Shown here: positions 5,150 to 55,426 of the stretch, piece after piece
How the letters are laid out: each line of letters starts with the position of its first letter
How positions within the stretch are numbered: the stretch's first letter is position 1
Notes under the pieces: model-generated
What the model was told of the DNA's origin: nothing
What the model saw: only the letters and a program-made list of their open reading frames with translations
The model's database searches: none
Assembly (NCBI GenBank): GCA_963775425.1
Contig: CAVZJB010000017.1
Coordinates: 224,001 to 288,000 of the forward strand
Length of the DNA: 64,000 bases
DNA from: an uncultured delta proteobacterium
GTDB lineage: Bacteria; Myxococcota; UBA727; VGSZ01
Direction: 5' to 3'
Position numbers and translations under genes: made by a program

Positions 5150-5209
5150 ACTGACTGGTCAGTCGAGAGCCGTCCAGAGGTGCTCGCCTAGACTGACTAG
5201 TCAGTCGAG
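5150..5209. promoter_or_regulatory. Two palindromic operator-like boxes upstream of tetR-fas
   Basis: GACTGACTAGTCAGTC (perfect 16-bp palindrome, 5191-5206) and ACTGACTGGTCAGT (5150-5163, one mismatch); the 18-mers ACTGACTRGTCAGTCGAG repeat 42 bp apart. Confidence 0.8.
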
Positions 5210-5271
5210 TCAATCAGTCCGAAACCGTGACCGCGTGGTCCTCCTCGTGCGCGGGCTGCTAGAACGCTCTC

Positions 5272-5865: not shown

Positions 5866-5928
5866 CCACGCCGTCGGCGGTCGGCGCCCCGCTCGCCCCC
5901 GCCGATCCCCGCCGCCCATGGGAGGGCG

Positions 5929-7122: not shown

Positions 7123-7137
7123 CGGGGACGTTCGTCG

Positions 7138-7254
7138 CTACTCCGACGGCACCGACGACTCGGTGGGCGCGGCGGTGGGCCGGTTTTCGCCGACGTATTT
7201 GACGGCGAAATAGACCGCGGCCCCGATGATGGCGAGCCCGATGAGGTACTTCAT
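7138..7254 (-). CDS. 38-aa single-pass membrane microprotein
   Basis: MKYLIGLAIIGAAVYFAVKYVGENRPTAAPTESSVPSE*; GC3-rich codons; TAGGCT box 6 nt upstream of the ATG. Confidence 0.65.
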   Translation of the reverse strand: MKYLIGLAIIGAAVYFAVKYVGENRPTAAPTESSVPSE

Positions 7255-7309
7255 GCGTCGAGCCTAGCGGCGCGGGCGCGGGCGCGCGAGCGCCGCTACA
7301 CTCCTCGTC

Positions 7310-7813
7310 GTGCGCACCGCCGGCCCCGCGCTGTGTCTGTTTTTCACCGCCTGTGCGGGCTCCGGGCCGAGCGCGTTCACGTCCGAGGACGTGCAGCCCT
7401 TCCTCGAGGCGCACAACGCCGTGCGCCACGCGGCGAGCCCCGCGCCGGACCCGGCGCTGCCGGACCTCGCGTGGGACGAAGACATCGCGGCGACGGCGCA
7501 GGCGTGGTCATCGCGCTGCGTCTTCGAGCACTCGCACGGACCGCTCGGCGAGAACCTCGCGTTTTTCAGCGGCGACGCGTCGACCCCGCAAGACACCGTC
7601 GACGGCTGGTCCTCCGAGGCCGCCGACTACGACTACGGCCAAAACGGCTGCGCCGCGGGCCGGCAGTGCGGCCACTACACCCAGATCGTGTGGCGCGACA
7701 CGCAGCGCGTCGGCTGCGGCGCCTCGTCGTGCACCGTCGACGGCTTCGACGGGACCTTCTGGGTCTGCAACTACGACCCGCCGGGAAACGTCGTCGGCGA
7801 AAAGCCGTACTGA
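7310..7813 (+). CDS. CAP (SCP/PR-1-like) domain secreted protein/lipoprotein
   Basis: AHNAVR, LAWD, GENLA, CGHYTQIVWRDT, VCNYDPPGN motifs; lipobox-like FTAC. Confidence 0.92.
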   Translation: MRTAGPALCLFFTACAGSGPSAFTSEDVQPFLEAHNAVRHAASPAPDPALPDLAWDEDIAATAQAWSSRCVFEHSHGPLGENLAFFSGDASTPQDTVDGWSSEAADYDYGQNGCAAGRQCGHYTQIVWRDTQRVGCGASSCTVDGFDGTFWVCNYDPPGNVVGEKPY

Positions 7814-7855
7814 GCGGCGCCACGACCGCCGCGGGCCTCGCGCCCGGGGGAGCGC

Positions 7856-25936: not shown

Positions 25937-26020
25937 CGTCGCCGCCCGCGCCGTGGGCGCGTGTCCTACGTCAAGTTCCGCGCCCGCTCGTCGATGAACA
26001 CCTCCGACACCGGAGGGTTC

Positions 26021-39357: not shown

Positions 39358-42300
39358 GGCGCGACGACCTCAAAGGTGCCGCCGTCGGAGCGGCCCGAGG
39401 TCTCCGGGGCGTACATCTCCTCGGCCGTGGCCGGCTTCAAGACGAACGTCCCCGGCGTCGTCGCCCGCGCGGTGATCGACGTGGTGTGCACGCCCGGCGG
39501 CAGGTCGTCGGAGAAGAACACGGCGCGGTCGTCGCGCAGCTCGACGTGGTTGAACGGGCTCCACACGGCGTACTCCTCGCCCTCGCCCTCGCCCTCGTCG
39601 CCGTACTCACCGTCCTCGCCGCCCTCGCCGCCCTCGTCTCCCTCCTCGCCCGCCGGCGCGTGAGACGCCGTGGACGCAAGGCTCTCGTCGACGATCTCGA
39701 GGCCCGCCGGCAGCGGCACCTCCACCGCCACGAACTTTCGCTCCGCCGATGTCGCCACGCGCGCCTTCACGCGCACGAGCTCACCGGCGCGGACCTTCAA
39801 GGCGCGCCCCGTCCCGGGCGCGGTGCTCCACGGCTCGAACCAGCGCTGCACCGCGATGCCCGCGTCGAGCGGCGTGGTGGGCATCTCCTTCTTCGCGTAG
39901 CGCAGCGCGGCGGTGTAGCTGAGCGTGCCCGAGCCCGTCTTTTCGAACACGAGCGGCGCCTGCCCGCCGGCGCCGAGCGCGCTCATCGGCACGAGCTTCT
40001 CGAAGATGTCGAGGCTGCGACCGTCGAAGCGCTGCGTGATGAGCGGCTTCCCCGCCAGCGAGACCGTCGCCTCGAAGCGCGGCGGCTCATGCTCCTTGGC
40101 GCGCACCACCTCCGTCAGCGCCATCAAGGCGAACGCCGCCTCCTGCGTGCTTCGATAGCGCCCGCCCTTGCGCTCCGTGCCGAGCCAATGCGCGATCTTG
40201 CCGACGAAGGGATGGTCGGGCTCACCGTCGACGAGCGTCATCAGCACCACCGCCGACGTCCGCACGTCGCTCGACCAGTAGCTGCTCCAGCGCCGCGGGT
40301 CCGTCTCCTCGAAGTGCACGTCGCGCGCGGTCTCCTTGGCCCCGTTCATCACCTCCTGCAACAAGACGCCCGCGCGCTCGTCGTCGGCCTTGCCCACGTA
40401 GCTCGCGTCCGCGAGCATCGCCTTGGCGAACAGCGGCAGGTCCGCGCGCTTGTCGAAGAGCCCCTCGATGAAGCTGTTCTTCGGCTCCCCGGTGCGCGCC
40501 AGCGCCCACACCGCGAACGCCCGCTCCACGAGGCTCGCGTGCCGCTGCCAGCCGCACGAGGGCAAACGATCGGCGGCCACCTTGGTCGCGAGGAACCTCT
40601 TCGCCTTGCTCACGGCGGAGTCATCGACGGCATAGCCGAGCTCCTTGGCCCGAGAGAGGGCGAGCGTGGCGTACGACGACGCCCACGGGTCGCTGCACGA
40701 CGACGAGCCCCAGTAGCGGAAGCCGCCGTCGTCGCTCTGCAGGTCCTCGAGCGCACGCACCGTCTTGTCCGCGACGCGGTCGGGGTCCGGCACGCCGCCG
40801 GCGGCGTCGGCGTCGAGCCCCAGCCAGTGCGCCGTTCGTTGCTGCTCGGCGTCGCCGCCCTTGTGCGGCACACCGAACGCGCCCTCCAGCTCACGCAGCG
40901 CCATGAACGGCACCAGGCGCGACGAGAGCTGCTCGGCGCAGCCGTAGGGATACGCGACCAACTGCTCGAGCGCGTCCTGGTAGCCGGCGAGCGCCGTGGA
41001 CGCCAGGCTCACCTGGAGGCCACCCACGCCGGGGTAGACCCCCGCCGGCGGCGCCAGCGCCTCCTCGCGCTTTCCGTCCGTGTCGCCGGTGGCGGCCACC
41101 GTCTCCATCACCATGGGGAGCACCACGGGCAAGAGGTGCTCCACGCCGTCCCGCTCGCCGCCTCCGATGACCTCGAAGCGCAGCCGCGCCGTCCCCGGCG
41201 ATTTGGCCGCGAACGAAAACCGCACCTCGCGCGCGCGGCCGGCCTCGACGCGCACCGTCTGCTCCGGCGGCCCGTCGAGCGCGAGCCCTTGCGCGTCCAC
41301 CTTCACCTTCACGTCGCCGGCCTGCTGCGCGTGCACGATCACGCCCGCGGAGAACGTGTCGCCGACGCGCGCGAGGCGCGGCAGCGCCGGCAACGCGAGC
41401 AGCGGCTTCTGCACGACGATGTCGGTGCGCCCGGAGCCCGCGCGATCGCCCTCGGTGACGGCCAGCGCCATCACGCGGTAGGTGGTGAGGTCGTCCGGGA
41501 GCTTCACCTCCACCTCGGCGCGGCCCTGTTCGTCCGTCTCCACCTGGGGCACGAAGAACGCCGTGGTCTTGAAGTTGGAGCGGAAGCCGCCGCCGACGCC
41601 GGCGCCGCCGTCGCCGCCGGGGGGCCTGCCCTTCTCGCCGTAGCGCTGCTTCTTGATGAGGAAGATCAGCGGCTCACCGAGCCGCACGCTCAAGCCGCGC
41701 GGCGGGTGAATGGCCGCCACGGGATCGGGCACGCTGTAGTCCGTCAAGCGCAGCACGGCCTCGTCCACCGCCCACAGCGCGACCTCCGCGGGCGCGCCGT
41801 GGCCCTCGAAGTCCTTCACCGCGATCTTGAGCTTGAGCTTCTCGCCCGGCCGGTGCGTGCCCGCGCCCGCGTCGACGGCGACGTCGAGCCGCTTCTCCCG
41901 CTTGTCGACCTCGAGCTTCGCGTACCCGACGCGCACCTGCGGCCTGCCCGGGTCCGCCTCACGCGCGGCGGCCGACGCGGCGTCCTTCGGGCTCGCGGCG
42001 TCGTCGGGGACGCGGCCCCGGACGACGACGACGCTCACGAACACGTTCGGCACCATGCCGTCGGTGATGGGGATGTCCACGGTGCTCGACGGCGACACCT
42101 TCTGCCGCCGGGTCCACAGCACGCCCTCACGCTCGACGGTGACGAGCGCCTCCGCGTCGGGCCACGGGCTCTTCACGAGCACCCTGGCGGTGTCGCCCGC
42201 CTCGTAGAGCTTCTTGTCCGCGACGAGGTCGATCTGGTCGCCGTCGGTGCGCTGCCAGCTCACCCAGGCGCCGCCCACGACGTAGGTCGACGTGGTGGTG

Positions 42301-45248
42301 GTCTGCTTCCTGCCGTGATCGTCGGTGGCCGTGGCCTCGATGATGTAGAGGCCGGCGCGTTCGGGGGTGACGTCGCAGCCGACGTCGGCGGAGGCGTCGC
42401 TCACCTTGCTGCACGTGGAGACCGGCGTCTCCTGCGGCTCGCTCATGGTGATGAAGCGGCCCGTGTCCGGGTCCTTCTTCTTGATGCTCTTCCACTCGCG
42501 CCGCTTGACCGCCACCTCGATGTGGGTCCCCGCCACGCGCTGTCCATCGACGCCGACGGCGATGAGCCCGATGTGCAGCGGCTTGTTGACCTCCCCGAAG
42601 CCATCCCCCGTGCGGACGCCCGCGTACACCGAGGCGGGGTGCACGATGACGCGCGCGCGGTTGGCCACCCGTTGCCGGCTCACGTCCTCGACCTCGGACT
42701 CGATCTCGTACGCCACCGTCCGGCCGGCGACCGCCTCGGTCTCGCCGACGTCGACGGCGAGGGTGCCGTCGGCGCCGACGTCGTCGCTCTTCCTGAAGAC
42801 CACCGCCGACGCGCCCTCGGGCTCGCCGTCGTCGAAGCCCCACACGTTCTTGCCGAACGCGTACTCGTCGAAGCCCTCAGGCGTGAAGTCCGCCGTCTCG
42901 CGCACCACCGTGGTGTCCACGTGGGCTCCGGGCATGGCGCCGCCGAAGAGGTAGCGCGCGTCGACGTGGGCGATCAGGTGCTCGCCCGCGACCACCGCAG
43001 GCCTCTCGGTGGTGACGTCCACCTTGAACTTGGGCGCGCGGTACTCCTCCACGCGAAACGACGTCGACAGGTCGATCTCTTTCCCCGCCACCGTGGCGCT
43101 CGCGGCGAGCTCGTGCCAGCCGAGCGAGCCTCCTTCGGGCAGCTTGACCTTGGTGCTGAACGTGCCGAAGCGCGTGAGGGGCACGTCCTGCTTGGCGACC
43201 GTCTTGCCGTATGTCCTCACCTCGACGTGCACCTCGCTGTCGATCTTCGGGAGCGAGATGACGCCGCGGCGGCGCAGGCGGACCACGCCCTTGATGTCCA
43301 CCTCGTCACCGGGGCGATAGATCCCGCGCTCCGTGGCGACGAAGCCGAGCGCGCGCGGCACGTCTCCGTCGAAGTCGACGTCCATCCCGGCGCTCGAGGG
43401 GCCGATCTCGCCCTCCCACGACGAGAACGACACGCCCGTGTCGCCGTCCTTCTGCGCGGACACGAGCACCTCGGGCGCGGAGTAGTAGCCTTCGATGTTG
43501 CTGCCGGCGACCAGGTCGGCGAGGCCCTTCACGTGCGCGATGCCGTCGTCATCGCTGGTCTCGCTCTCGAGCGCTTTTCCGTGCGTGTCGTAGAGCGTGA
43601 CGGTGGCGCCGGCCACCGGCGCGCCCTTGGACAGCGACGTCACCCACACCACGCCGCTCGTGGCGCCGAGCTTCGCGTGCGCGACCAGGTCCGTGATCTG
43701 CCCGAGCACGTAGCTCGGCTCGTGGCCCACCTCGGGCGCGATGAGCGCGAGGCGGAAGAGCTTGGGCGCGCCCGAGGGCAGGAGCGCGCCGAGCTTCAGC
43801 GGCACGCGCACCGCCACGTTGCGTTCGGCGGAGGTGTCGACGGTGGTGGCGATGGCGTCCTTGCCCACCACGTGGGCGCGCGGATCGCGCATGAGCCCCG
43901 CCATCTCCGCGGGCAGGAGCGGCAACACCGAGACGCGCACCTCGTCGACGTTGACGGCCTCGACGGGATAGCTGTCGTCGCCGCCGCCCTCGATGAGCGC
44001 CAGCGAGCTGTCGACGCGCAGGTCCGGCTCGACGTCGTCGAGCTTGAACGTCCCCGAAAACGCCGGCGCCTCCTGGCCGAGCGCGTCCTTCACACCGGCG
44101 TCGACGACGATCTTGTAGTGGAGCCCCGGGCGGAAGCGCGCCTGGATGCTGGCGGTGGCGCCGTCGTGCACCGAGGTGCGCGAGCCGATCTCGTCGTCGT
44201 CGATGACCGCGGGCGGATCGAAGTGCACCTTGCCCAGCAAGCTCTCGACGTCGGGCTCGTTGGTGGCCTGGAGGACCACGGGCCCGTACGGACACGTCTC
44301 GCGCCACGACTCGCACGCGCGGACGCCCGTGAAGCGCATCGCGCCCGCCACGGCGAAGGAGAGCTGCTTGGGCTCGGCGGTGATGGGTCCTTCCTTGCCG
44401 GCGAGGCTGCCGTCGACGGAGACCGTGAGCTTCTCACCCGACGCGAGCGTGGCCTTGGGCTTCAGCACGTAGCGCGTCTCCCGGCCCCACGACGAGCGCG
44501 CCGGCGGCGCCGCGTGCTGCTTCTTGGCGCGCTCGGCCTCGACGTCGACGACGTCGACGACGTCGTAGGCGACGGGCTTGCCGCCGCTTTTGATGGTGAC
44601 GTGACGCGCGAAGTCGTCGGCCATCGGCTGGTTGAAGACGAGCGCGATCTTCCCGTCCGGCGGGAGCCAGCGCCAACCGGCCTCGGGGTCGCTGCGCACG
44701 ACGCGCGGGTGCACGGTCTCGAAGGAGAAGGTGTAGGGCTTTTGGAGCTTCTCGCCGTCGACGGCGACGAGGCCGTCGCCCAGCGTGACGGTGAATTTGG
44801 TGGCGTAGGGGAGCACCTCGTCGGGAGCGAATTCGATGCTCGACGAGCCGATCCACTTCCACGCGCCCTTCACCGCGGGCTCGATCCGCGCCTGCGGCGG
44901 CTTGGCGGCGTCGCGGTCGCCGAGCGCCACCACGGGCTTGTTGAAGGTGACCGCGGGGCGCGCGCCGCTGCTGTTGACGCCTTGCGGGCGCGCGACGACG
45001 ACGGTGAGCGGACCCGCGGGGATGCCGGCGAACGCGCCGCTTTGGATGTGGACGGCGGGCGGCTCGGGGAGGGGCAGCAGCTCGAGGGGCTCCTTTTCCG
45101 CGGGGACCTTGAGCGTGTCGGTGTGCGCGAGGTCGGGCTCCTGCTTGCCGCAGCGGTTGCATGAGACGGCCGTCGCGAGCGATGCGGTGACGACGGCGAC
45201 GACGGCGAAGCGATGACGGCGAGCGTGCACGTGGACCCCCGGATGCAT
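39354..45248 (-). CDS. Bacterial alpha-2-macroglobulin family lipoprotein
   Basis: TERGIYRPG, FRVEEY, LPDDLTTYRV, thioester YPYGCAEQ, RSTQE, AEEMYAPETSGRS. Confidence 0.95.
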   Translation of the reverse strand: MHPGVHVHARRHRFAVVAVVTASLATAVSCNRCGKQEPDLAHTDTLKVPAEKEPLELLPLPEPPAVHIQSGAFAGIPAGPLTVVVARPQGVNSSGARPAVTFNKPVVALGDRDAAKPPQARIEPAVKGAWKWIGSSSIEFAPDEVLPYATKFTVTLGDGLVAVDGEKLQKPYTFSFETVHPRVVRSDPEAGWRWLPPDGKIALVFNQPMADDFARHVTIKSGGKPVAYDVVDVVDVEAERAKKQHAAPPARSSWGRETRYVLKPKATLASGEKLTVSVDGSLAGKEGPITAEPKQLSFAVAGAMRFTGVRACESWRETCPYGPVVLQATNEPDVESLLGKVHFDPPAVIDDDEIGSRTSVHDGATASIQARFRPGLHYKIVVDAGVKDALGQEAPAFSGTFKLDDVEPDLRVDSSLALIEGGGDDSYPVEAVNVDEVRVSVLPLLPAEMAGLMRDPRAHVVGKDAIATTVDTSAERNVAVRVPLKLGALLPSGAPKLFRLALIAPEVGHEPSYVLGQITDLVAHAKLGATSGVVWVTSLSKGAPVAGATVTLYDTHGKALESETSDDDGIAHVKGLADLVAGSNIEGYYSAPEVLVSAQKDGDTGVSFSSWEGEIGPSSAGMDVDFDGDVPRALGFVATERGIYRPGDEVDIKGVVRLRRRGVISLPKIDSEVHVEVRTYGKTVAKQDVPLTRFGTFSTKVKLPEGGSLGWHELAASATVAGKEIDLSTSFRVEEYRAPKFKVDVTTERPAVVAGEHLIAHVDARYLFGGAMPGAHVDTTVVRETADFTPEGFDEYAFGKNVWGFDDGEPEGASAVVFRKSDDVGADGTLAVDVGETEAVAGRTVAYEIESEVEDVSRQRVANRARVIVHPASVYAGVRTGDGFGEVNKPLHIGLIAVGVDGQRVAGTHIEVAVKRREWKSIKKKDPDTGRFITMSEPQETPVSTCSKVSDASADVGCDVTPERAGLYIIEATATDDHGRKQTTTTSTYVVGGAWVSWQRTDGDQIDLVADKKLYEAGDTARVLVKSPWPDAEALVTVEREGVLWTRRQKVSPSSTVDIPITDGMVPNVFVSVVVVRGRVPDDAASPKDAASAAAREADPGRPQVRVGYAKLEVDKREKRLDVAVDAGAGTHRPGEKLKLKIAVKDFEGHGAPAEVALWAVDEAVLRLTDYSVPDPVAAIHPPRGLSVRLGEPLIFLIKKQRYGEKGRPPGGDGGAGVGGGFRSNFKTTAFFVPQVETDEQGRAEVEVKLPDDLTTYRVMALAVTEGDRAGSGRTDIVVQKPLLALPALPRLARVGDTFSAGVIVHAQQAGDVKVKVDAQGLALDGPPEQTVRVEAGRAREVRFSFAAKSPGTARLRFEVIGGGERDGVEHLLPVVLPMVMETVAATGDTDGKREEALAPPAGVYPGVGGLQVSLASTALAGYQDALEQLVAYPYGCAEQLSSRLVPFMALRELEGAFGVPHKGGDAEQQRTAHWLGLDADAAGGVPDPDRVADKTVRALEDLQSDDGGFRYWGSSSCSDPWASSYATLALSRAKELGYAVDDSAVSKAKRFLATKVAADRLPSCGWQRHASLVERAFAVWALARTGEPKNSFIEGLFDKRADLPLFAKAMLADASYVGKADDERAGVLLQEVMNGAKETARDVHFEETDPRRWSSYWSSDVRTSAVVLMTLVDGEPDHPFVGKIAHWLGTERKGGRYRSTQEAAFALMALTEVVRAKEHEPPRFEATVSLAGKPLITQRFDGRSLDIFEKLVPMSALGAGGQAPLVFEKTGSGTLSYTAALRYAKKEMPTTPLDAGIAVQRWFEPWSTAPGTGRALKVRAGELVRVKARVATSAERKFVAVEVPLPAGLEIVDESLASTASHAPAGEEGDEGGEGGEDGEYGDEGEGEGEEYAVWSPFNHVELRDDRAVFFSDDLPPGVHTTSITARATTPGTFVLKPATAEEMYAPETSGRSDGGTFEVVAP

Positions 45249-46290: not shown

Positions 46291-46827
46291 ATGAAGACGA
46301 CCCTCGCGCTCCCGGCGCTCCTCGCGCTGTCCGCCTGCAACGGCATCGTGGGCGCGGTGCCCGTCGAGGTCTCCGGCGGCACCCTCACCGCCTCCGGCGA
46401 TGCGCACCGCGCGGTGCTCCGCCTGTCGGAGGCGAGGTCTGCGCCCGGGTGCGGCGTCGAGGAGCCGAGCGACGTCGAGGTGGTCATCTCCCTCGCCAAC
46501 GACGCCGGCATCGACCCAGGCGTCTACGACATCACCGGCGGCGCGCGCTCCGCCGACGCCCGCCTCACGCTCACTGACAAGAGCTGCGCCGCCCTGCGCG
46601 ACGACGCCGCCACGAGCGGCGCCGTGCACGTCAACACCATCGACCTCCATGCGCGCGCCACCGGCTCGTACGATCTCGTGTTCGACACGGGAGAGCTGTC
46701 GGGCCGCTTCGACGCGGGCGCGTGCGTGCTCGCCGGCGGCGGCGACGTCGACGTCGCCGACTGCGACGACGTCGACCATGACGGCGAGCCCGGCGGCACA
46801 TCCGGCGGCGGCGGCGACGGCGACTGA
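46291..46827 (+). CDS. Hypothetical lipoprotein
   Basis: MKTTLALPALLALSAC lipobox; beta-rich body. Confidence 0.7.
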   Translation: MKTTLALPALLALSACNGIVGAVPVEVSGGTLTASGDAHRAVLRLSEARSAPGCGVEEPSDVEVVISLANDAGIDPGVYDITGGARSADARLTLTDKSCAALRDDAATSGAVHVNTIDLHARATGSYDLVFDTGELSGRFDAGACVLAGGGDVDVADCDDVDHDGEPGGTSGGGGDGD

Positions 46828-46884: not shown

Positions 46885-47553
46885 TCAACCGCCGCCGAAC
46901 CGCTCGTCGACGACGCGCTGGGTGAAGACCCGGCGCAGGTAGAACCCCTGCGGGGGCGCGCGATAGGCGACGCCGGCGACGTCGGTGGCGCTGCGCTCGA
47001 CGCGGGCGTCGCGCGCCTTCGGGCGGAGCTGCAGGAAGCGGCCGCGGCGTGCGGTGACGGCGAAGCCGAGGCCGTGGGCGACGAGGTCGGCGAGGTCTTC
47101 CCAGTCGGCGCGCAGCGCGCGCTCGTCGTCCTCCCCGGGGCTCCACAAGAAGGCCGTTCCCACGCGGCGCTGCTCGCCGCGCGCCTCCACCGGAACGAAC
47201 AGCACGCGCGCGAGCTTCGCCCGCGCCCGCGACGTCGCCCACGTCTCTTCCTTGATGCTCTCGGGCGAGGCGCTGCACACCCACGTGGACTCGACGACGC
47301 GGCCGCCGTCGACGGGCAGCGTCTTCACCTCCACGCCGGCGGCGGCGAAGTCCGGCCCGGGTGCGCTCGAGCGCGGCAGCCCGAGCGCCCGCTCGACGAG
47401 CTCGCCGACGCCGCCCTTGCCCACCGCCACGCCGAGCGACGACACGGTCCGCCCGGCGAGGGCGTGCGCGCGGGCGAGGATCTCGACCTCGTCGACGACC
47501 TCCTCGACGACGTCCTCGACGACGGCCTCGACGGTGATCACGGCGCGCGCCAC
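46885..47553 (-). CDS. mutH: MutH/Sau3AI-family endonuclease, closely MutH-like
   Basis: KGGVGELVERALG, PDF...GVEVKTLPVD (PD-D/ExK), ESTWVC, W.TS...KL.RVLFVPVE, LWSP, DWEDL, TARRGRFLQLRPKA, GFYLRRVFT, co-linear with E. coli MutH as I recall it. Confidence 0.88.
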   Translation of the reverse strand: MARAVITVEAVVEDVVEEVVDEVEILARAHALAGRTVSSLGVAVGKGGVGELVERALGLPRSSAPGPDFAAAGVEVKTLPVDGGRVVESTWVCSASPESIKEETWATSRARAKLARVLFVPVEARGEQRRVGTAFLWSPGEDDERALRADWEDLADLVAHGLGFAVTARRGRFLQLRPKARDARVERSATDVAGVAYRAPPQGFYLRRVFTQRVVDERFGGG

Positions 47554-47864: not shown

Positions 47865-49070
47865 ATGAGCCGCTTCACCGCCCCCGCCGTCGTCGCCGCC
47901 ACCGCCACGCTCCTCGCCGCCTCCGGTGGCGCTCTCGTCGGCGCTGGCGCCGCCCGCGCGCAGCCTGACGCGGGCTGGGTCGCGCGGATGGATGCGCTCG
48001 CCGTGGCGCTGTCGCAGTTGCTCCCGGACGCCCTGGGCGACCCGCCGTCGAGCGCCGAACAGCAGGAGGCGCGCGACGAGAGGCTGCGCAAGAACACGCG
48101 CGCCCTCGCGACCCTCGCGCACGACCTCAGGATGGTCGACCCCTCGCGCCTCCCCGACAACGACCCGACGGTGCCGCTCCTCGCGCGCGAGCTCGACAGC
48201 GCGATGGCCGACGTCGAGACCGCGCGTGGGGATCGCTTGAAAGACGCGTCGCTGCTCGTGGCGTCGACGTGCATCGCCTGCCACACGCGCACGAACGCGG
48301 GCGCGCCGCGGCCGCGCATGCGCCTTCCTGCCGTGGACCCGTCGCTCCCCGCCTGGGTGCAGGCCGACGTCCTCGCCGCCACCCGTCGCTTCGAGCCGGC
48401 GCGCGCCGCATACCGCGCCGTCATCCGCGACGAGAGCTTCGCCGAGAAGGAGCCGATGCTCTGGGAGCACGCCGTCAAGCGGGCGCTCGTCCTCGAGGTG
48501 CGCACCGCCCGCGACCCCCGCGGCGCGCTCGAGATCGTCGAGCAGGTGCTCCACACGCCCGCGCTCGAGGGGCGCGAAGGGATGCTGCGCGACGCCGCCG
48601 GCTGGCGTACGAGCCTGCGCGCGTGGGCCGCGGAGCCGCAGCGGCCGCGCACGCGCCAGGCGCTCTACGCGCAGGCGCAGCGCCTGATGGATCAAGCCAA
48701 CGCCCTGGCGCGCGCCCCCGACGACAGCAGCGCCGACATCCTCTACCTCCGCACCACCAGCGCCCTGCACGAGCTGCTCTCCAAGCTCCCCGCGGACGCC
48801 AAAGCGAAGGGCGTGCGCGCGCAGGCGCTGTCGTGGCTCGGTGAGAGCTACGAGGCCTTGCGCGACGTCGACGTCTGGTCCCTGTACCTGCTGTACGACG
48901 AGGCCTGCATCGAGGAGGCGCCGCACTCCATCATCGCCGGCGAGTGCTACGACCGGCTCGTGCGCGCCACGCGTGTCGAGGAGAGCGGCAACGGCGGCGC
49001 CCCCCTCGACGCCGTCACCCGCGCCCGCCTCGAGCGCCTCAAGGACCTCTCCGTCTCCCACCCCCGCTGA
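47865..49070 (+). CDS. Secreted monoheme c-type cytochrome with helical-repeat C-terminal region
   Basis: Signal peptide; single CIACH heme motif after a helical segment; remainder predicted all-alpha. Confidence 0.72.
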   Translation: MSRFTAPAVVAATATLLAASGGALVGAGAARAQPDAGWVARMDALAVALSQLLPDALGDPPSSAEQQEARDERLRKNTRALATLAHDLRMVDPSRLPDNDPTVPLLARELDSAMADVETARGDRLKDASLLVASTCIACHTRTNAGAPRPRMRLPAVDPSLPAWVQADVLAATRRFEPARAAYRAVIRDESFAEKEPMLWEHAVKRALVLEVRTARDPRGALEIVEQVLHTPALEGREGMLRDAAGWRTSLRAWAAEPQRPRTRQALYAQAQRLMDQANALARAPDDSSADILYLRTTSALHELLSKLPADAKAKGVRAQALSWLGESYEALRDVDVWSLYLLYDEACIEEAPHSIIAGECYDRLVRATRVEESGNGGAPLDAVTRARLERLKDLSVSHPR

Positions 49071-49159: not shown

Positions 49160-49822
49160 ATGGATGCCGCCACGTCCGCGCTCGTCGACGAGGTGCGCCG
49201 TCTCTCTCCCGAGAAGGCGTTTCGCGCCTATCTCGAGCTGTGCGACACGGCGCCCGACAAGGCGCAGGTGGCGGCGCTCGCGCTGCGAGACAAGGCGCGG
49301 GCGGGCGAGCTCCCCGACGACTGCGTCGCCCTCCTCGACACCTGCCTCGCCGAAGCGCCCGACTCCGTCTGCGCGGCGCACCTCGCCAAGGCGCTCGCCG
49401 CCTTCGGCCGCCGTGCGCAGCCCGCCGCGCCCACGCTGTGCGCCCGCATTCGCGACCTCCACGTCACCGACGACGTCGGCTACTGGATCCTCGACGGCTG
49501 CCTCTTCGCCCTCGGCTTCCTCGGCGGCGCCGCCGCCAAGGCGCTCCTCGACGCGCTCGACGCCGAAGCCCCGAGCCGCGCGGTGCGCTCGGACTCCGTC
49601 TATGACGGAGAGCTGTCCCGCGAGGAGCGCGGGCGCCGCTACGCCGACGCGCTCGCCCGCGTGCGCGCCCTGGTCGAGCAGCGCGACCCGGGCGTGTGGC
49701 GCCCGCAGCAAGCGCGCCCCACGCGCGCGCCGTCGCCGCGGCCGCCCGCGACGGAGGGGACGCCGGCGCCCGCGGAGGAGCCGAAGGCCGGGCCGTCGAA
49801 GAAGTCCTGGATGGTGCGCTGA
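49160..49822 (+). CDS. Hypothetical alpha-helical (HEAT-like) protein
   Basis: Natural-looking ORF with LAKALAAFG..AQPAAP and ALGFLG helical repeats. Confidence 0.6.
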   Translation: MDAATSALVDEVRRLSPEKAFRAYLELCDTAPDKAQVAALALRDKARAGELPDDCVALLDTCLAEAPDSVCAAHLAKALAAFGRRAQPAAPTLCARIRDLHVTDDVGYWILDGCLFALGFLGGAAAKALLDALDAEAPSRAVRSDSVYDGELSREERGRRYADALARVRALVEQRDPGVWRPQQARPTRAPSPRPPATEGTPAPAEEPKAGPSKKSWMVR

Positions 49823-49842: not shown

Positions 49843-50283
49843 TCAGCCACGCACTTCGATGCGCGTCTCGCCGATGCGGATGAGGTCCCCGAGCGCGAGC
49901 TCGGCCGACGGGATGCGCTTGCCGTTCAGGAACGTGCCGTTGGTGGACGCCATGTCGAGCAGCGAAGCGCCGGCCTCGTCGACGAAGACCATGGCGTGGC
50001 GCTGGGAGACCGAGTCGTCCTGGAGGCCGACGTCGGTGTCGCGCTCGAAGCTCGTGAGCAGCGCGCGCGCGCCGGCGTTCTTGGGCGTGGCGCGGATCTT
50101 CAGGTGGCGGGTGACTGCCTTTTCGTCTTCGTCGGACAGGCGGTGCGACGAGTGCTGCGTGATCATGCCCGTGGCGCCGATGAGGGTCTGGCTGCGCCCC
50201 ACCATCACGCAGTGCCCGACATTGACCACAATGGAGCGGCCGAAGTCCTTTCCTTTGACCACGACGAGGACGGCGCGTTTCAT
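49843..50283 (-). CDS. FHA domain protein
   Basis: VGRS, VSQRHA, DMASTNGTFLNG, GDLIRIG. Confidence 0.9.
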   Translation of the reverse strand: MKRAVLVVVKGKDFGRSIVVNVGHCVMVGRSQTLIGATGMITQHSSHRLSDEDEKAVTRHLKIRATPKNAGARALLTSFERDTDVGLQDDSVSQRHAMVFVDEAGASLLDMASTNGTFLNGKRIPSAELALGDLIRIGETRIEVRG

Positions 50284-51827
50284 ACGGTCTTCGAACCTAC
50301 ACCAAACGAGCCTGGGCGGATACCGAGCCTGCGCAGGAGGCGTTCGACCTCGGCCCAGGCGCCCGTCTCCTTCTCCTCGTCGCTCGTGGCCCCGACGAAG
50401 CCCTCGAGGCGCTCGCGCAACGCGCGCTCGCCCGGAGTCAACACGCCGTCGTAGCGCCGATCACCGAGGTGCGCCGTGGCCGCCGCCGCCTGCTGCGCCA
50501 TGCGATCGAGGAAGATGTCCACGAGGCGCGCCTGCTCCGCGAGGGAGCCGGCGAACGTGATCCAATCGAGGTCGCCGCCCCACAGCTCCTCGGCCAGCGG
50601 GTTCGGCTCGACGACGAGCGTGGTGCCGAACTTGCCGGGCCCGATGGACTGGCGCACGGCGTGGGCGATGCGGTGGAAGTTGTCGTCGGTAAAGGAGAAG
50701 CCGACGAAGAGCATGTGCCGTGTGAGCAGCAGCGCCTGCACGATGCCGGCGAGCGCGGTGCGGTTCTCCTGGAACTTCAGGTAGTCCTCGCGCGTGAGCA
50801 CGATGGTCTCGGGCTTGGTCACGCTGCCGTGCATCTTCAACAACCAGCGCTGCCCGCGCGCGACCTCGCCGCCCGGCAGCACCGTCACCGGGCGCTCCAC
50901 GGCGAGCGACGCCCGCTCGAAGAGGTCGTCGTAGTTGGTGGTGATGACCTCGTCGACGGGCAGGCTCGCGAGGAGCCCGTGGCCGAGCGCGTGGCGCCGC
51001 GCCCGCTCCCGCAGGAGCGCGGCGACGACCGCGCCGAGCGGCTCCTGATCGTGCAGCCGGCGTTGAATCACGGCGGCGCGATCGAGCTCGCCGAGCTGGG
51101 CGAGCGCCGCCTTGGTGGCCGCGTCGTCGACGCCGGCGCGCTCCTCGGCGAGGTCTTCGAGCATCGTGGTCCACGACGGCAGCCCGGCCCCCTGGCTGAC
51201 ACCCGCGCCGAGGAAGACGACGAGGTCGCCGCTCCTGGCCTTGCTCGCGAGGGCGTCGGCGGCGGCGAGCTGCCCGGGCGACAGCGTCGCCCACGTCTCG
51301 ATGGCGGCGCGCTCGTGTTGCGCCGCCGCCCACGCGGGGCCGTCGCGCAGCACGAGGGCGACGTCGACGTCTGCGGCCTCCGCCTCCTCGTGCAGCGCCG
51401 GCAGGAGCAGCCGCACCACCTCGCCCGAGAGCCGGGCGCCGCCGCCGCCGCCGGTGCCCGCGAGCGGCAGCGCGAGCAGGTGCTTGTGGCGGCCGAACAG
51501 CGGCGCGCGCTTCTTGTCGCGGAGCACGCGCGCCGCGAGCTGAACGAAGTGACGCGCGCCTTCGACGTACCAGGGGGGGCCGTCGCGTTTTGTGCCGATG
51601 ACGTCGGTGAGAAACGGCAGGGGCTCCGTGGGGGAGACCTCGGCGAGCAGCCGCGCTCGCGGCCGGCCCTCGTCGGACCAGCCGGCGGGCAATTCCAGCC
51701 AGGCCTCCTGCGGCGGGAGCGCGGTGCGCCAGCTCTCTCCCGGCGAGCGTTCGCTGCCCGGGACGAGCCACGCGTCGCACGTGAGCTGCATCAAGTCGCC
51801 GCGGAGCACGAACACGTGGGAGCGCAT
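50280..51827 (-). CDS. Macro-like domain + SIR2 (SIR2_2-type) fusion protein
   Basis: SIR2: VFLGAGVS..AGLPSW, ITTNYD, LLKMHGS, LTREDY, LFVGFSFTDDNF. N-terminus: GDLMQLTCDAWLVP and ALPLAGTGGGG resemble macrodomain GDIT..DA and P.I.TG..G motifs. Confidence 0.85.
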   Translation of the reverse strand: MRSHVFVLRGDLMQLTCDAWLVPGSERSPGESWRTALPPQEAWLELPAGWSDEGRPRARLLAEVSPTEPLPFLTDVIGTKRDGPPWYVEGARHFVQLAARVLRDKKRAPLFGRHKHLLALPLAGTGGGGGARLSGEVVRLLLPALHEEAEAADVDVALVLRDGPAWAAAQHERAAIETWATLSPGQLAAADALASKARSGDLVVFLGAGVSQGAGLPSWTTMLEDLAEERAGVDDAATKAALAQLGELDRAAVIQRRLHDQEPLGAVVAALLRERARRHALGHGLLASLPVDEVITTNYDDLFERASLAVERPVTVLPGGEVARGQRWLLKMHGSVTKPETIVLTREDYLKFQENRTALAGIVQALLLTRHMLFVGFSFTDDNFHRIAHAVRQSIGPGKFGTTLVVEPNPLAEELWGGDLDWITFAGSLAEQARLVDIFLDRMAQQAAAATAHLGDRRYDGVLTPGERALRERLEGFVGATSDEEKETGAWAEVERLLRRLGIRPGSFGVGSKTV

Positions 51828-51857
51828 GGCGACGGATCTACCGCGCCCGGGCCGCGC

Positions 51858-51900
51858 TTGACTTCAATGCATGGTGCATATATGTTCTATGCATATATGC
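51858..51900 (+). promoter_or_regulatory. Sigma70-type promoter overlapped by palindromic operator
   Basis: TTGACT(51858)-17 bp-TATGTT(51881); inverted repeat GCATATATG-N7-CATATATGC (51876-51900) covers the -10 and the nrtR start codon. Confidence 0.8.
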
Positions 51901-52601
51901 CGAGAGCATCAAAGTCCCTGAGCGCGTTCCCCCGGCCGTCGGTGGCCGTGGACGTGGTGGCGATGACCGTCGAGAGCGGCGCGCTCCACGTGGCGCTCTA
52001 CAAGCGCACGGAGCCGCCCCAGCGCGGGCACTACGCCCTGCCCGGCGGCTTCGTGCGCATCGACGAGTCGCTCGACGACGCCGCGGCCCGCTTGCTCGCG
52101 CAAAAGGCGGGGTTCACCGACGTCTTCCTCGAGCAGCTATACACGTTCGGCGACCTCCGCCGCGACCCGCGCGGCCGCGTCATCGCCGTCACCTACTACG
52201 CCCTCGTCGACGCCGCCCGCTTCCGGAACAAGACGTGCGTCGATGCGCGCGTGACGGTGCCTTGGCCGGGCGAGACCGGCGGCCCCGTCGACGTCGTCGG
52301 CGACGACGGCGCGCCGCTGCAGCTCGCGTTCGATCACGCGGACATCCTCGGCCTCGCGGTCAAGCGGCTGCGCGGCAAGCTCGACTACTCGCCCGTCGGC
52401 TTCCAGCTCCTGCCCGCGGAGTTCACGCTCCGCCAGCTTCAGGAGATCCACGAGGCCGTCCGCGGTGACGAGCTCAACAAGGACTCGTTTCGGCGGCGCA
52501 TGTTGACCTCGGGTGTGCTCGAGGCCACGGGCGCGCGCGAGCGCGACGTGCTGCACCGGCCCGCCGAGCTCTATCGGTTCGTGCGGAGGAGCGCCGTGTA
52601 G
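51897..52601 (+). CDS. nrtR: NrtR-family regulator (degenerate Nudix + winged HTH)
   Basis: PSVAVDVV, LPGGFV..DESL..AAARLLAQKAG (Nudix RE/EE lost), LEQLYTFG...RDPRGRVI, LAFDHADI, FTLRQLQ..HE, KDSFRR, HRPAELYRF. Confidence 0.9.
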   Translation: MPRASKSLSAFPRPSVAVDVVAMTVESGALHVALYKRTEPPQRGHYALPGGFVRIDESLDDAAARLLAQKAGFTDVFLEQLYTFGDLRRDPRGRVIAVTYYALVDAARFRNKTCVDARVTVPWPGETGGPVDVVGDDGAPLQLAFDHADILGLAVKRLRGKLDYSPVGFQLLPAEFTLRQLQEIHEAVRGDELNKDSFRRRMLTSGVLEATGARERDVLHRPAELYRFVRRSAV

Positions 52602-52691
52602 GAGGGAGCGATGGGAACAAGACAGCAGCCGATGACAACAAAACGCATCGAGCCGGCCCTGGTGCCGGCGAGGACGGGAGGGAGGAACACC

Positions 52692-53714
52692 ATGGCGGAG
52701 ATCAGGTCCTTCGTTTTCGTGCGCCACCTGCGGGCCGAGCCCACCACGCACGTGTTGTTCTTCCGCGGCGGCGCGCTGCGCGCGAGCGGCCGCGGGCTCG
52801 CTTTGTGGTTCTCGCCGCTCGGGGCGTCCATCGCGCAGGTCCCCCTCGATGACCGCGAGCTCCCGTTCCTGTTTTCGGGGCGGTCGGCGGACTTCCAGGA
52901 CGTCGTGGTGAACGGCGTCGTGACCTTCCGGGTGAGGGACCCGGAGCTCCTCGCGTCGCGCGTGGACTTCTCCATCGACACGCGCACGGGCCTCTTCAAC
53001 AAGGAGCCGCTCGACAAGCTGGCGCTCGTCGTCAAGGAGCTGTCGCAGCAGCTCGCGTCGTCCTTCCTGAACCGAACGCCGCTCAAGACCATCCTCGACC
53101 AGGGCATCGAGGTCATCCGCGACGCCATCCACGTGGGCCTGGTCACCGACGAGGGCGTCGGCGCGCTCGGCCTCGAGATCGTGTCCACGCGCATCTCGTC
53201 GGTGAAGCCCACGAGCGAGATGGAGAAGGCGCTGCAGATGCCGACGCGCGAGCGGATCCAACAGGCGGCCGACGAGGCGACCTTCGGGCGGCGGGCGCTG
53301 GCGGTGGACAAGGAGCGCGCCATCCAGGAAAACGAGCTGTCGAACCAGATCGAGCTCGCGCGCCGCGAGGAGCAGCTCATCGCGCAGCGCGGACAAAACG
53401 AGAGGAAGCGCGCCACCGAGACGGCCGAGTCCAAGCGCATCGAGGTCGAAGCGGCGGCGCACAACGTGAAGCTGAACGCGGCGGCGCAGGCGGAGAGCAT
53501 CAAGGTGCTCGAGGACGCCAAGGTCGTCGCCGAGCGCGAGCGCATGGACATCTACCGCGACCTGCCGCCCGCGGCGCTCATGGGCCTCGCCGCCCGCGAG
53601 CTCGCCGGCAAGCTGCACAACATCGAGCACCTGAGCCTCACCCCCGACATCCTCGGCTCGCTCCTGCAGCGCGTGCTCGGCGCCGGTGCGGACAAGCTCG
53701 AGCGCGACGCGTAG
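52692..53714 (+). CDS. SPFH/band-7 domain protein with coiled-coil C-terminus
   Basis: DFQDVVVNG.VTFRV.DP, QQAADEATFGRRALAVDKERAIQENEL, LNLT-like LSLTPD. GGAGG RBS at 52681; alternative in-frame ATG at 52611. Confidence 0.85.
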   Translation: MAEIRSFVFVRHLRAEPTTHVLFFRGGALRASGRGLALWFSPLGASIAQVPLDDRELPFLFSGRSADFQDVVVNGVVTFRVRDPELLASRVDFSIDTRTGLFNKEPLDKLALVVKELSQQLASSFLNRTPLKTILDQGIEVIRDAIHVGLVTDEGVGALGLEIVSTRISSVKPTSEMEKALQMPTRERIQQAADEATFGRRALAVDKERAIQENELSNQIELARREEQLIAQRGQNERKRATETAESKRIEVEAAAHNVKLNAAAQAESIKVLEDAKVVAERERMDIYRDLPPAALMGLAARELAGKLHNIEHLSLTPDILGSLLQRVLGAGADKLERDA

Positions 53715-53733
53715 GGCGGGGGCTTGCCCCCCG

Positions 53734-53769
53734 TCGACAAGAGCCCGCCTCGACAAGAGCCCGCCTCGA
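53734..53769 (+). repeat. 16-bp tandem duplication in intergenic space
   Basis: TCGACAAGAGCCCGCC x2 plus TCGA, following a GC hairpin after the SPFH stop. Confidence 0.8.
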
Positions 53770-53781
53770 GAGGAGCACGCG

Positions 53782-54681
53782 ATGTCCAGGTCCCTTCCGC
53801 CGAGAGCCGTCGTCGTCACCAGGCCCACCGAGCTCGAGGCGCTCCTGCTCCACCACGGCACGCGCGAGCAGGCGCGCTTCTTCCTCGAGACGCGCGGGCG
53901 CAAGCTCGACGAGGTCGTCGACCGCCACGAGACCCAGGAGCGGGCCCTTCACGCGGTGGCGGCGCAGGTCCCCATGGCGTGGCGGCGGGCCAAGGTGTCC
54001 CGCGCCGAGCTCGATCGCTTCCTGTTCGAGCCGGAGGACGTCGTCATCGCCGTGGGCCAGGACGGGCTCGTCGCCAACGTCGCCAAGTACCTCGACGGGC
54101 AGGTCGTCGTCGGCGTCAACCCGTCGACGTCGCTGTACGACGGCGTCCTCGTGCGCCACCCGCCCCCCGCCGTCGCGGACCTGCTCGCCATGAACGCGCG
54201 CGGCGCCCTGGCCGTCGAGGAGCGCTCCATGGTGCGGGCGAGCACGGCGGACGGTTCGAGCCTGGTGGCGCTCAACGAGATCTACGTCGGTCACCGCACA
54301 CACCAGAGCTCGCGCTACACCCTCGCCGTCGCCGGCCGGGCCGAGCGCCACTCGTCGTCGGGGCTCATCGTGTGCAGCGGCACGGGCGCCACCGGCTGGG
54401 CGAAGAGCGTGTCGCTGCGGCGCCAGGGCTGCCCTGCCCTGCCCGAGGCAACGTCGACCACGCTCGCGTTCCTCGTGCGCGAGGCGTGGCCGAGCGTCGC
54501 CACCGGCGCCGAGCTCGTGCACGGCCTGCTGAAGCAAAGCGACGAGATCATCGTCACATCGGAGATGAACGAGGACGGCGTGGCCTTCGGGGACGGCATC
54601 GAGGACGACAACCTCGCGCTGCCCTACGGCCAGGTCGTCACCCTGCGGCGCGCCGAGCAGGCGCTGAGGTTGGCGGCATGA
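53782..54681 (+). CDS. NAD-kinase-fold protein (GQDG variant)
   Basis: VIAVGQDGLVANVAKY, VGVNP, ALNEIYVG, SSGLIVCSGTGATGW, FGDGIEDD. Confidence 0.85.
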   Translation: MSRSLPPRAVVVTRPTELEALLLHHGTREQARFFLETRGRKLDEVVDRHETQERALHAVAAQVPMAWRRAKVSRAELDRFLFEPEDVVIAVGQDGLVANVAKYLDGQVVVGVNPSTSLYDGVLVRHPPPAVADLLAMNARGALAVEERSMVRASTADGSSLVALNEIYVGHRTHQSSRYTLAVAGRAERHSSSGLIVCSGTGATGWAKSVSLRRQGCPALPEATSTTLAFLVREAWPSVATGAELVHGLLKQSDEIIVTSEMNEDGVAFGDGIEDDNLALPYGQVVTLRRAEQALRLAA

Positions 54682-55292
54682 GCACGAGAGTCCACAGCCC
54701 CCTCGAGGAGCGCGCCGACGAAGAGGGGCTCGGTCTGTTCCGCATCCCCTTCGTGCGCATCGTCGACGACGTGCTCAGCGCCGCCGAGTGCCGCGCGCTC
54801 GTCGAGCGCGTCGAGTCGATGGGCATGGACGTGGCCACCATCAATCGCGGCAACGGGAAGACCGAGCTCAACACCCGCTACCGTGACAACGACCGCGCCA
54901 TCTTCGACGACGTCGACCTCGCCGCGGACCTCCATCGCCGCCTCGCCTGCGCCATCCCGGAGACGTGGAGCGGTGGCGCCCGCGCCGTGGGGTTGAACGA
55001 GCGCTTTCGCGCCTACCGCTACGGCCCCGGCCAGCGCTTCCTCCCGCACTTCGACGGCTGCTTCCGCCGCGACGAGCGCGAGGCCAGCGAGATCACGGTG
55101 CTCGTGTACCTGAACGACGCCGTCGCTGGCGGCGCTACCCGGCTGTGCGACTTCGGCTTCGACGTCGTCCCCAAGCGCGGCATGGCCCTGCTCTTCCAGC
55201 ACATCGTGCTGCACGAGGGCCTGCCCGTCACCGCGGGCAACAAGTACGTCCTGCGCAGCGACGTCATGTACCGCTCCGCGCGCCCCGGTTGA
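54678..55292 (+). CDS. 2OG-Fe(II) oxygenase, prolyl 4-hydroxylase-like
   Basis: LSAAEC, GLNERFRAYRY, PHFDG (HxD), VYLND..GG.T, LHEG, KYVLRSDVMY; ATGA overlap with the kinase-like gene. Confidence 0.9.
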   Translation: MSTRVHSPLEERADEEGLGLFRIPFVRIVDDVLSAAECRALVERVESMGMDVATINRGNGKTELNTRYRDNDRAIFDDVDLAADLHRRLACAIPETWSGGARAVGLNERFRAYRYGPGQRFLPHFDGCFRRDEREASEITVLVYLNDAVAGGATRLCDFGFDVVPKRGMALLFQHIVLHEGLPVTAGNKYVLRSDVMYRSARPG

Positions 55293-55310: not shown

Positions 55311-55377
55311 GGCGCCATTGCCGGCGCCCCATTGCCGGGGCCCCATTGCCGGCGCGCCATTGCCGGCGCGCCATTGC
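55311..55377 (+). repeat. 14-bp tandem repeat x5
   Basis: CCATTG at 55315, 55329, 55343, 55357, 55371, with CCGGCGC(C/G)-like linkers. Confidence 0.88.
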
Positions 55378-55426
55378 GGACGCGCCTGTCGACGGCGCCC
55401 GGGCATCGCGTGTACGGTCCGCGCCC

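Follow-up and report, generated by a model that had tools for sequence, protein, structure and literature searches.

Regulators of the NrtR family are repressors that are released by ADP-ribose. Such release from DNA is on record for the NrtR proteins of Shewanella and Synechocystis (PMC2330246), and Table 1 of that paper (Rodionov et al. 2008) lists an operon, 'nrtR<#>nrtX-nrtY', with the function given as '?', in Kineococcus, Frankia, and Proteus; in Streptomyces and Hahella, nrtX-nrtY also forms a separate operon that bears an NrtR site. The paper treats nrtX and nrtY as genes of unknown function, and its main text carries no statement of the encoded products. Here we describe a locus of an uncultured delta proteobacterium (Myxococcota) in which an operon headed by nrtR stands back to back with the gene for a Macro-SIR2 protein, that is, a macrodomain fused to a SIR2_2 domain. 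The locus lies at positions 49843-55292 of a 64,000-nucleotide stretch (assembly GCA_963775425.1, contig CAVZJB010000017.1, positions 224,001 to 288,000), and this whole stretch is termed the window herein.

Described relatives of the Macro-SIR2 protein come from several sources. The ThsA proteins of Thoeris occur in two forms, SIR2-SLOG and TM-macro (transmembrane helices with a macrodomain) (PMC11204291). The Macro-SIR2 family itself is known so far as a survey label only: SIR2_2/SIRim-Macro fusions form the eukaryotic clade C in preprint 10.1101/2024.09.18.613514, 'Macro' labels appear in the SIR2_2 tree of PMC12700824, and an ESM-Atlas cluster bears the name 'Macro/SIR2-like domain-containing protein'. 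The passages found in a survey preprint on TIR systems (10.64898/2025.12.03.692087) mention no Macro-SIR2 effector. On the regulatory side, section 3.8 of PMC9503650 describes ADP-ribose-related conflict cassettes under NrtR-type repressors and so offers a precedent.

The window locus appears to combine two units of different age. Its right arm, nrtR-SPFH-NADK2-like kinase, would be the ancient and conserved one, extended locally by a prolyl-4-hydroxylase (P4H)-like oxygenase; its left arm, Macro-SIR2 with a translationally coupled FHA protein, would be an accessory insertion. The two arms are linked rarely, yet repeatedly, in other genomes. Our preferred reading is an NrtR-controlled divergon that joins an NAD-consuming arm to one for an NAD(P) response, and we assign this model a probability of about 40%.

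Linkage of Macro-SIR2 to a conserved module

The right arm recurs far beyond the window. At 80 kinase loci examined with tblastn, an SPFH gene was adjacent in every case and an nrtR gene in 68, either co-directional or divergent as in Kribbella and Streptomyces. Other genes of the window locus were scarce there, with one Macro-SIR2 gene (L089, on a contig shared with L009), one 2-oxoglutarate (2OG) oxygenase gene (L091), and one weak FHA match. The 2OG gene joins the module at three loci, namely, the window, L091, and L177. The kinase was present in 94 of the 301 Myxococcota genomes of our phylum sample, or roughly one in three. The nrtR-SPFH-NADK2-like operon is thus a widespread module, present in many other phyla, and the FHA gene and the oxygenase are local add-ons.

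The surroundings of Macro-SIR2 were examined at 101 loci (80 genome loci and 21 metagenome loci at ≥33% identity), in 82 of which one flank or both extend to 3.5 kb or more. Macro-SIR2 lies beside nrtR-SPFH-NADK at four of these 101 other loci (L009, L039, L170, and L177), and the linked loci show three gene orders at 43-60% identity. The arms are divergent around a shared gap in the window, L009, and L170. In L039, Macro-SIR2 closes the operon and follows the kinase gene at a distance of 19 bp. In L177 it faces a 2OG-SPFH-kinase-NrtR operon from a distant subfamily, and a single TerC gene separates the two convergent units. The window and L177 therefore share Macro-SIR2, NrtR, SPFH, kinase, and 2OG genes in different orders. 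Across the three geometries the kinases are 69%, 49%, and 34% identical to that of the window. On a maximum likelihood tree of 89 Macro-SIR2 sequences the linked rows are scattered, and these five rows need at least four changes, forced by well-supported branches. By a rough estimate, made without a formal test and with kin that are not independent, fewer than 0.1 chance adjacencies within ~4 kb would be expected over the 101 loci. An indirect hint of linkage comes from metagenomes, where the three nearest relatives of the SIR2 protein and those of the kinase have the same longest-contig values (9843, 19102, and 87779).

These three independent arrangements argue for a real, facultative association. 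An earlier reading of the locus from its letters (the sequence-only reading) had tied Macro-SIR2 to the NrtR operon and had mentioned Nudix-SPFH-NADK neighborhoods elsewhere; both the linkage in other genomes and the recurring neighborhood were found. On balance, we lean towards a functional link of some kind between Macro-SIR2 and the module.

Apart from the module, all-versus-all clustering of flanking open reading frames (ORFs) yielded no conserved partner of Macro-SIR2, the top true cluster (a Ser/Thr-kinase-AAA_16 protein) covering 18 of 80 loci. By Pfam, 60 co-directional neighbors included Pkinase/AAA_16 (six members), patatin (five), and FHA (two beyond the window's own), and 126 immediate neighbors included solute-binding proteins (five), glucokinase (four), and PrmA (three). 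In the closest relatives, the Macro-SIR2 gene stands between PrmA and glucokinase genes. Scattered PADLOC matches were found among the 126 neighbors (AriA, 2; AbiLi, 2; and single PDC models, PDC-M38A and PDC-S11/S68). Matches to mad2/3/8 were discounted, the member shown, at least, being a PrmA-type methyltransferase. None of the 101 other loci examined has a small FHA gene coupled to Macro-SIR2; FHA domains occur in two longer proteins adjoining it, at L012 and L061.

In Polyangium spp. (L028, L030, L033, L034, and L078; ~4100-8004), a Ser/Thr kinase-AAA_16-TPR (STAND-like) protein of ~1300 amino acids (aa) is encoded by a gene whose end overlaps the Macro-SIR2 start by 4 nt (6 members), and a large patatin-containing gene lies downstream. 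The kinase-AAA_16, Macro-SIR2, and patatin genes may form a lineage-specific three-gene unit.

Proteins of the two arms

Because the G+C content of the window is 70-76%, ORF lists are unreliable on their own, and gene frames were set by a plot of third-position G+C (GC3) together with the ORF lists and Pfam domains. The GC3 plot favored one frame per stretch, consistent with six genes. Direct reading of the sequence showed that the FHA start codon overlaps the SIR2 stop as ATGA, that the oxygenase start overlaps the kinase stop in the same way, and that the gap between the arms (51828-51896) measures 69 bp, given an nrtR start at ATG 51897. On all these points the sequence-only reading, which had proposed the six genes in these frames, both overlaps, and the 69-bp gap, was borne out, and its domain calls were correct as well: the macrodomain and NADK-like calls were secured by the separate checks described below, and the others agree with Pfam.

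The Macro-SIR2 protein (515 aa; 50280-51827, minus strand) carries a SIR2_2 domain by Pfam (PF13289, 1.4e-29, residues 293-410). The family library gave SIR2_2 alone and missed the macrodomain, which comprises residues 1 to ~180 (51288-51827, minus strand). A profile built from 41 N-terminal domains matched the macroH2A1.1 macrodomain among PDB sequences (E = 1.9e-6). Since Foldseek on the whole-protein model listed SIR2 proteins only, the macro part was modeled alone; the resulting AlphaFold2 model had a predicted local distance difference test score (pLDDT) of 90.7, and the Foldseek matches listed at the top were macrodomains themselves, macrodomain-containing proteins, or macrodomain derivatives. 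The matches listed include Venezuelan equine encephalitis virus (VEEV) nsP3, E. coli YmdB, macroH2A, PARP14, MacroD2, designed hydrolases, and the macroH2A-fusion crystallization constructs 7d3y and 5iit, and the best of them had E = 8e-7 and a template modeling (TM) score of 0.71. The conserved Asp and the Gly-rich phosphate loop of the macro fold are present; in the family alignments, D18, P121, and G124 are invariant (32 sequences) and G126/G128/G129 almost so. At the position of the catalytic Asn and GGG-x-D elements of macrodomain hydrolases (MacroD/viral type) there is P-G/T-x, as judged by a by-eye alignment to macroH2A1.1 only.

The SIR2_2 domain (residues ~190-425; 50553-51260, minus strand) is of the ThsA/DSR2/KomC type. 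PDB sequence matches of this part were led by SeThsA (2.5e-18) and BcThsA (1.5e-15), then DSR2 and KomC, and PADLOC ThsA1 matched it at 1e-33, over model positions 15-212 of 478 only. The full-length model (pLDDT 91.3; predicted template modeling score, pTM, 0.92) matched BcThsA at 5.2e-13 in Foldseek. N298 and D300 of the TTNYD motif and H333 of the HG motif are invariant in 32 sequences, and N298 and H333 align to the ThsA motifs, in keeping with the TTNYD and HG motifs read originally from the letters. Pfam gave no SLOG match, and the C-terminus is predicted to be a short helical tail reaching down to 50283 (minus strand). The maximum hydropathy over 19 residues, 1.59, falls within the SIR2 core and shows no transmembrane segment, so the protein is predicted to be soluble.

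The two-domain architecture is common. At least 809 proteins were homologous at E ≤ 0.001 (8000 candidates scored), and the best 120 are nearly all of 500-570 aa with query coverage of at least 96%. The macro profile found 1181 cluster representatives at E ≤ 1e-10, mostly of 500-560 aa with an N-terminal macrodomain, and this macro subtype is almost restricted to the macro + SIR2_2 architecture, which fits an obligate sensor-effector pair. The macrodomain is probably a non-catalytic ADP-ribose sensor that would gate a ThsA-like NADase. Six proteins of 1000-1700 aa (P0241, P0242, P0245, P0324, P0339, and P0382) have two to three stretches matching the macro profile, which may reflect fusion in tandem or gene calls run together. 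The second gene of the left arm encodes the FHA protein (146 aa; 49843-50283, minus strand; PF00498, 3.8e-14, in the GC3 frame).

On the plus strand, nrtR (51897-52601) encodes an N-terminal Nudix-like domain (NUDIX PF00293, 6.1e-9) and a C-terminal NrtR winged-helix domain (NrtR_WHD PF21906, 1.1e-22), the architecture of NrtR proteins. Among PDB sequences it matched Shewanella NrtR 3gz5 (8.3e-25) and AraR (1.1e-34). Its Nudix box is degenerate, with RLLAQK in place of the catalytic REUXEE. The genome holds two more NrtR paralogues, 37-40% identical (G000 C5:610518-611270, L298; C9:156123-156818, L299), neither of which adjoins classical NAD biosynthesis genes; one adjoins a VWA protein and a 647-aa unknown, and the other overlaps an 846-aa gene without a Pfam match.

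The SPFH/Band-7 protein (52611-53714, plus strand; Band_7 PF01145, 1.8e-12), whose gene has GGAGG 6 nt 5' of its ATG, ends in a long coiled-coil tail. It had no solved relative by sequence in PDB and no hydrophobic segment (maximum 19-residue hydropathy, 1.21), so the membrane scaffold, or cage, originally proposed for it was rejected for want of an anchor. In the spacer between the SPFH and kinase genes (53715-53781, plus strand), 2.9 copies of a 16-nt tandem repeat (TCGACAAGAGCCCGCC) accompany a GC-rich hairpin, and this spacer might serve for attenuation or processing within the operon.

The kinase (299 aa; 53782-54681, plus strand, start ATG 53782) has human mitochondrial NADK2 (7r4j) as its sole significant phmmer match in PDB (E = 2.4e-9), in an alignment that pairs the DG, NE, and SSGL-C-GTG-W motifs of both proteins; this match upholds the NADK-like call. 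Among the 7368 kinase homologues some are called 'NAD kinase' by JGI or carry PF01513, and in an alignment of 120 of them the motifs AVGQDGLVANVAKY, ALNE, SSSG-IV-TGTG-GWA, and FGDGIE show conservation of 90% or more, so that the GQDG of this protein is a family trait. A separate, canonical NAD kinase of 450 aa on contig C4 passes both Pfam NAD-kinase models, and the window kinase is therefore a second, non-canonical, putative NAD kinase, which would act on NAD(H). The last gene, for a P4H-like 2OG-Fe(II) oxygenase (54678-55292, plus strand; 2OG-FeII_Oxy_3 PF13640, 1.6e-11), matched Bacillus P4H 5iax among PDB sequences at 2.5e-11, with the HxD...H iron triad and the 2OG-binding Lys aligned (PHFD/AHYD, LHEG/LHGG, and KYV/KWI).

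Control region and competing explanations

The shared control region (51858-51916) begins at a distance of 31 bp from the SIR2 ATG, on its upstream side, and holds a sigma-70-like site, TTGACT-17-TATGTT, at 51858-51886 on the plus strand (1 versus 0.0 ± 0.2 in shuffles), the sole site of this kind in the 7-kb region. Two TGCATATATG cores, at 51875 and 51890, sit inside 25-nt inverted arms (51860-51884 and 51892-51916), and the AT-rich composite palindrome reaches into the first nrtR codons, overlapping the start codon. Of the one promoter and one palindrome read in the gap from the letters, the promoter thus stood, and the palindrome proved to be composite. A promoter for SIR2-FHA must overlap or abut this putative operator because the control region begins so close to the SIR2 start; in L089 and L170 the operator core is ~115 bp from the SIR2 start.

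The element is conserved. Upstream regions of orthologous nrtR genes have a TTGAC -35 followed by TAGATGC-N5-TGCATATATGC-N5-GTATCTAAGG, and the 10-nt core (≤2 changes) was found within -200 to +30 of the nrtR start in 23 of 28 loci whose NrtR is at least 54% identical. Where the NrtR is more distant, 1 locus of 45 has it, and the background rate is 0.014 per 230 nt. It is kept with or without a neighboring SIR2 gene. Its 8-nt core, CATATATG, occurs twice in the 8.26-Mb genome, both times in the shared control region, and this confinement to a single spot marks the window NrtR as a dedicated local regulator. The module operator of L177 differs from that of the window. Upstream of the first gene (2OG) of that module, at 8790-9040, lies another palindrome (TTGTCAC...GTGTTT / AGAGACAC), which suggests a second NrtR operator type.

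The divergon model would run as follows. By family knowledge, ADP-ribose would release the window NrtR, and the right arm should then switch on during NAD breakdown. It would deliver a second NAD(H) kinase and a soluble SPFH scaffold, whose most likely purpose is to safeguard the NADP(H) pool or restore its balance. The left-arm enzyme, a predicted soluble, ThsA-like SIR2_2 protein, would consume NAD, and its macrodomain, probably non-catalytic, would bind ADP-ribose or an ADP-ribosyl adduct and so gate the SIR2 domain. NrtR probably governs both arms, since its operator is the sole AT-rich element in the 69-bp gap, and ADP-ribose would act back on this one operator, whether it came from the SIR2 enzyme or from another consumer of NAD. 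The closed circuit of the sequence-only reading, in which SIR2 makes ADP-ribose and ADP-ribose lifts NrtR repression, would be one case of such feedback, with ADP-ribose as the presumed ligand of both NrtR and the macrodomain. Predicted parts of this model are the NADase activity, the kinase substrate, control of the left arm together with the right, and the role in physiology.

Several results weigh against it. Neither unit needs the other, as 97 of the 101 Macro-SIR2 loci are without the module and 79 of the 80 module loci are without Macro-SIR2. In the phylum sample (n = 301), Macro-SIR2 was present in 10 genomes and both genes in 7, linked in 2 of these 7 (G000 and G002); in G005, of the same family, Macro-SIR2 and the kinase are on different contigs, and the window's nearest tree neighbors, L169 and L171, are unlinked. 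The coupled small FHA gene was found here only and the 2OG gene at two other loci, and the six genes are not one conserved system. No other NAD or ADP-ribose enzyme recurred around the module in our samples: the 21 genes downstream held one ARPP-1 and one NadA, and nothing of the kind recurred in the 44 upstream. The kinase falls below every Pfam NAD-kinase threshold (PF01513/PF20143), and its GQDG in place of GGDG bears on the predicted substrate. Finally, the gap holds no minus-strand sigma-70-like promoter for SIR2-FHA, so that the case for NrtR control of that arm is one of geometry.

Much of this would be expected under neutral juxtaposition, in which Macro-SIR2, with its locally acquired FHA protein, is self-sufficient and the arms are regulated and act independently. 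The unlinked loci and the missing minus-strand site fit that view, as do the ceiling of 18 of 80 loci for any true neighbor cluster, neighbor tallies in which no Pfam family exceeds 6 members, and the place of the closest relatives between PrmA and glucokinase genes. We nevertheless regard it as rather unlikely, given the three gene orders with modules of different subfamilies, the L039 gene within an operon, the scatter of linked rows on the tree, and an operator that fills the sole AT-rich part of the shared gap. Anti-phage abortive infection, with a TIR-independent, Thoeris-like NADase effector, an ADP-ribose-type infection signal, and the NrtR arm as a defense or recovery program, seems improbable to us. 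Housekeeping or envelope genes flank the locus, and only a few of the 126 neighbors elsewhere match PADLOC models (the AriA, AbiLi, PDC-M38A, and PDC-S11/S68 matches), which does not support the defense island considered at the outset; the other five window proteins matched no PADLOC model except a generic 2OG one. No TIR gene was found in the window by Pfam and no TIR family among the 25 commonest neighbor families listed (60 and 126 neighbors), no full-length Macro-SIR2 homologue was found in 72,556 plasmids (≥80% coverage) or 50,697 phage records, and the Macro-SIR2 clades follow taxonomy within Patulibacter, Gemmataceae, and Polyangium (tree of 89 sequences), unlike fast-turnover defense genes. 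The immune explanation draws on the SIR2 domain being nearest ThsA, DSR2, and KomC in sequence and fold, on the patchy distribution (10 of 301 genomes), and on macrodomains as signal sensors of type II Thoeris (PMC11204291; 10.64898/2025.12.03.692087).

A protein ADP-ribosylation switch is, in our judgment, quite improbable. Here SIR2_2 would write the mark, the macrodomain would read or erase it, and FHA would tie it to Ser/Thr-kinase signaling. The pairing of sirtuin and macrodomain is a hallmark of SirTM systems (PMC12700824 and PMC9503650), but the sirtuin is of the SIR2_2 (ThsA-like) type and not class M, its characterized SIR2_2-type relatives are NADases by their PDB entry titles, and the best macro sequence matches are to the non-catalytic binder macroH2A1.1. 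The FHA protein is translationally coupled at the window locus, the Polyangium kinase-AAA_16 gene overlaps the Macro-SIR2 start (6 members), and FHA proteins adjoin at L012 and L061; these kinase and FHA neighbors are few, however, and could be due to chance. Ser/Thr kinase and FHA genes are very abundant in Myxococcota. A further and speculative possibility, which we rate as a long shot, is a self-amplifying NAD-collapse switch, in which a TIR-independent, ADP-ribose-gated NADase would induce the shared NrtR operator through its own product and would be wired to a rescue arm, where an SPFH-caged NADK2-like kinase and the hydroxylase would shelter part of the pool as NADP(H). If true, this would give the nrtX-nrtY module its first function, as a response to NADase attack or in immunity.

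For the divergon model, the rare but repeated coupling, once within an operon, is a lead; it points to the consumption of NAD or the production of ADP-ribose as what the module may respond to. A few proteins and one 59-bp DNA element make the idea testable at the bench. Should the link be only positional, the locus would be one more copy of a known module.

Neighboring features and known systems

By Pfam, the locus is flanked in the window by alpha-2-macroglobulin/PBP1C, SpoU, and MutH-like genes, two unknowns, and esterase, subtilase, and AsmA genes. A search of public sequencing runs for the 5.4-kb stretch listed no run, and none with RNA. Between the oxygenase and BD-FAE esterase genes, at 55312-55386, there is a 14-nt tandem repeat (GCGCCATTGCCGGC, 5.4 copies, 90% matches). 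The MutH-like endonuclease gene (46885-47553, minus strand; PF02976, 5.8e-19) is flanked by genes without a Pfam match at 46291-46827, 47988-49070, and 49160-49822. Further away, at 36880-45248 on the minus strand, a bacterial alpha-2-macroglobulin gene (1964 aa) adjoins a transglycosylase/transpeptidase (PBP1C-like) gene, presumably the classical A2M-PBP1C pair. A 1606-aa gene at 25961-30781 (plus strand) consists mostly of ~102-nt repeats encoding Asp-rich D-x-D-x-D-G units, which we take to be thrombospondin type 3-like calcium-binding repeats; this Asp-rich gene accounts for the AT-skew peak of 0.43 at 28-30 kb.

Among described systems, the right arm resembles the nrtX-nrtY regulon of the 2008 paper, with an NrtR gene beside or divergent from a two-gene operon that has an NrtR site, and from this matching arrangement nrtX-nrtY are probably the SPFH and NADK2-like genes. 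When genomes were scanned from a Streptomyces sp. kinase, Kribbella and Acidimicrobiia made up nearly all of the result, and no genus named in the 2008 table was among them. A full-text literature search found no study of the nrtR-SPFH-NADK2-like operon, and nrtY appeared with NrtR in the 2008 paper alone. Macro-SIR2, FHA, and 2OG do not belong to that regulon and set the window locus apart from it. The kinase shares the DG, NE, and SSGL-C-GTG-W motifs with NADK2, its best solved relative, and differs in its length (~300 aa versus ~390-440), in GQDG for GGDG, and in its constant pairing with an SPFH gene. As in the ARG-centered NrtR/WYL systems of Iyer et al. 2022 (PMC9503650), an NrtR-type repressor stands over a variable ADP-ribose-related cassette; the window lacks the ARG, rhodanese-phosphatase, and chaperone genes described there, and its core is SPFH plus kinase.

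The left arm shares with ThsA of type I Thoeris (6lhx, 8bto, and 7uxt) the SIR2_2 catalytic domain with TTNYD and (K)MHG motifs and the fusion of SIR2 to a sensor, here presumed, for an ADP-ribose-derived ligand. It differs in that the sensor is an N-terminal macrodomain and not a C-terminal SLOG domain, that no ThsB/TIR gene is nearby, and that the neighborhoods are mostly housekeeping. A macrodomain as the putative nucleotide-binding sensor of an effector recalls the type II ThsA (TM-macro) described in PMC11204291, the effector being SIR2 instead of transmembrane helices and the protein lacking a TIR partner; ThsA macro structures were absent from the Foldseek matches listed for the macrodomain model. 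Membership in type I or II Thoeris was rejected with SLOG, transmembrane segment, and TIR all absent, and membership in SirTM because the sirtuin class is wrong (SIR2_2 only, not class M) and the macrodomain is fused and not a separate gene. The surveyed SIR2_2/SIRim-Macro fusions have the same two domains, and the likeness is one of content only; as catalogued, those entries carry neither a function nor an NrtR linkage. The locus brings together known kinds, an NrtR regulon and a ThsA-like SIR2 with a putative macro sensor, and offers above all a lead to the function of nrtX-nrtY.

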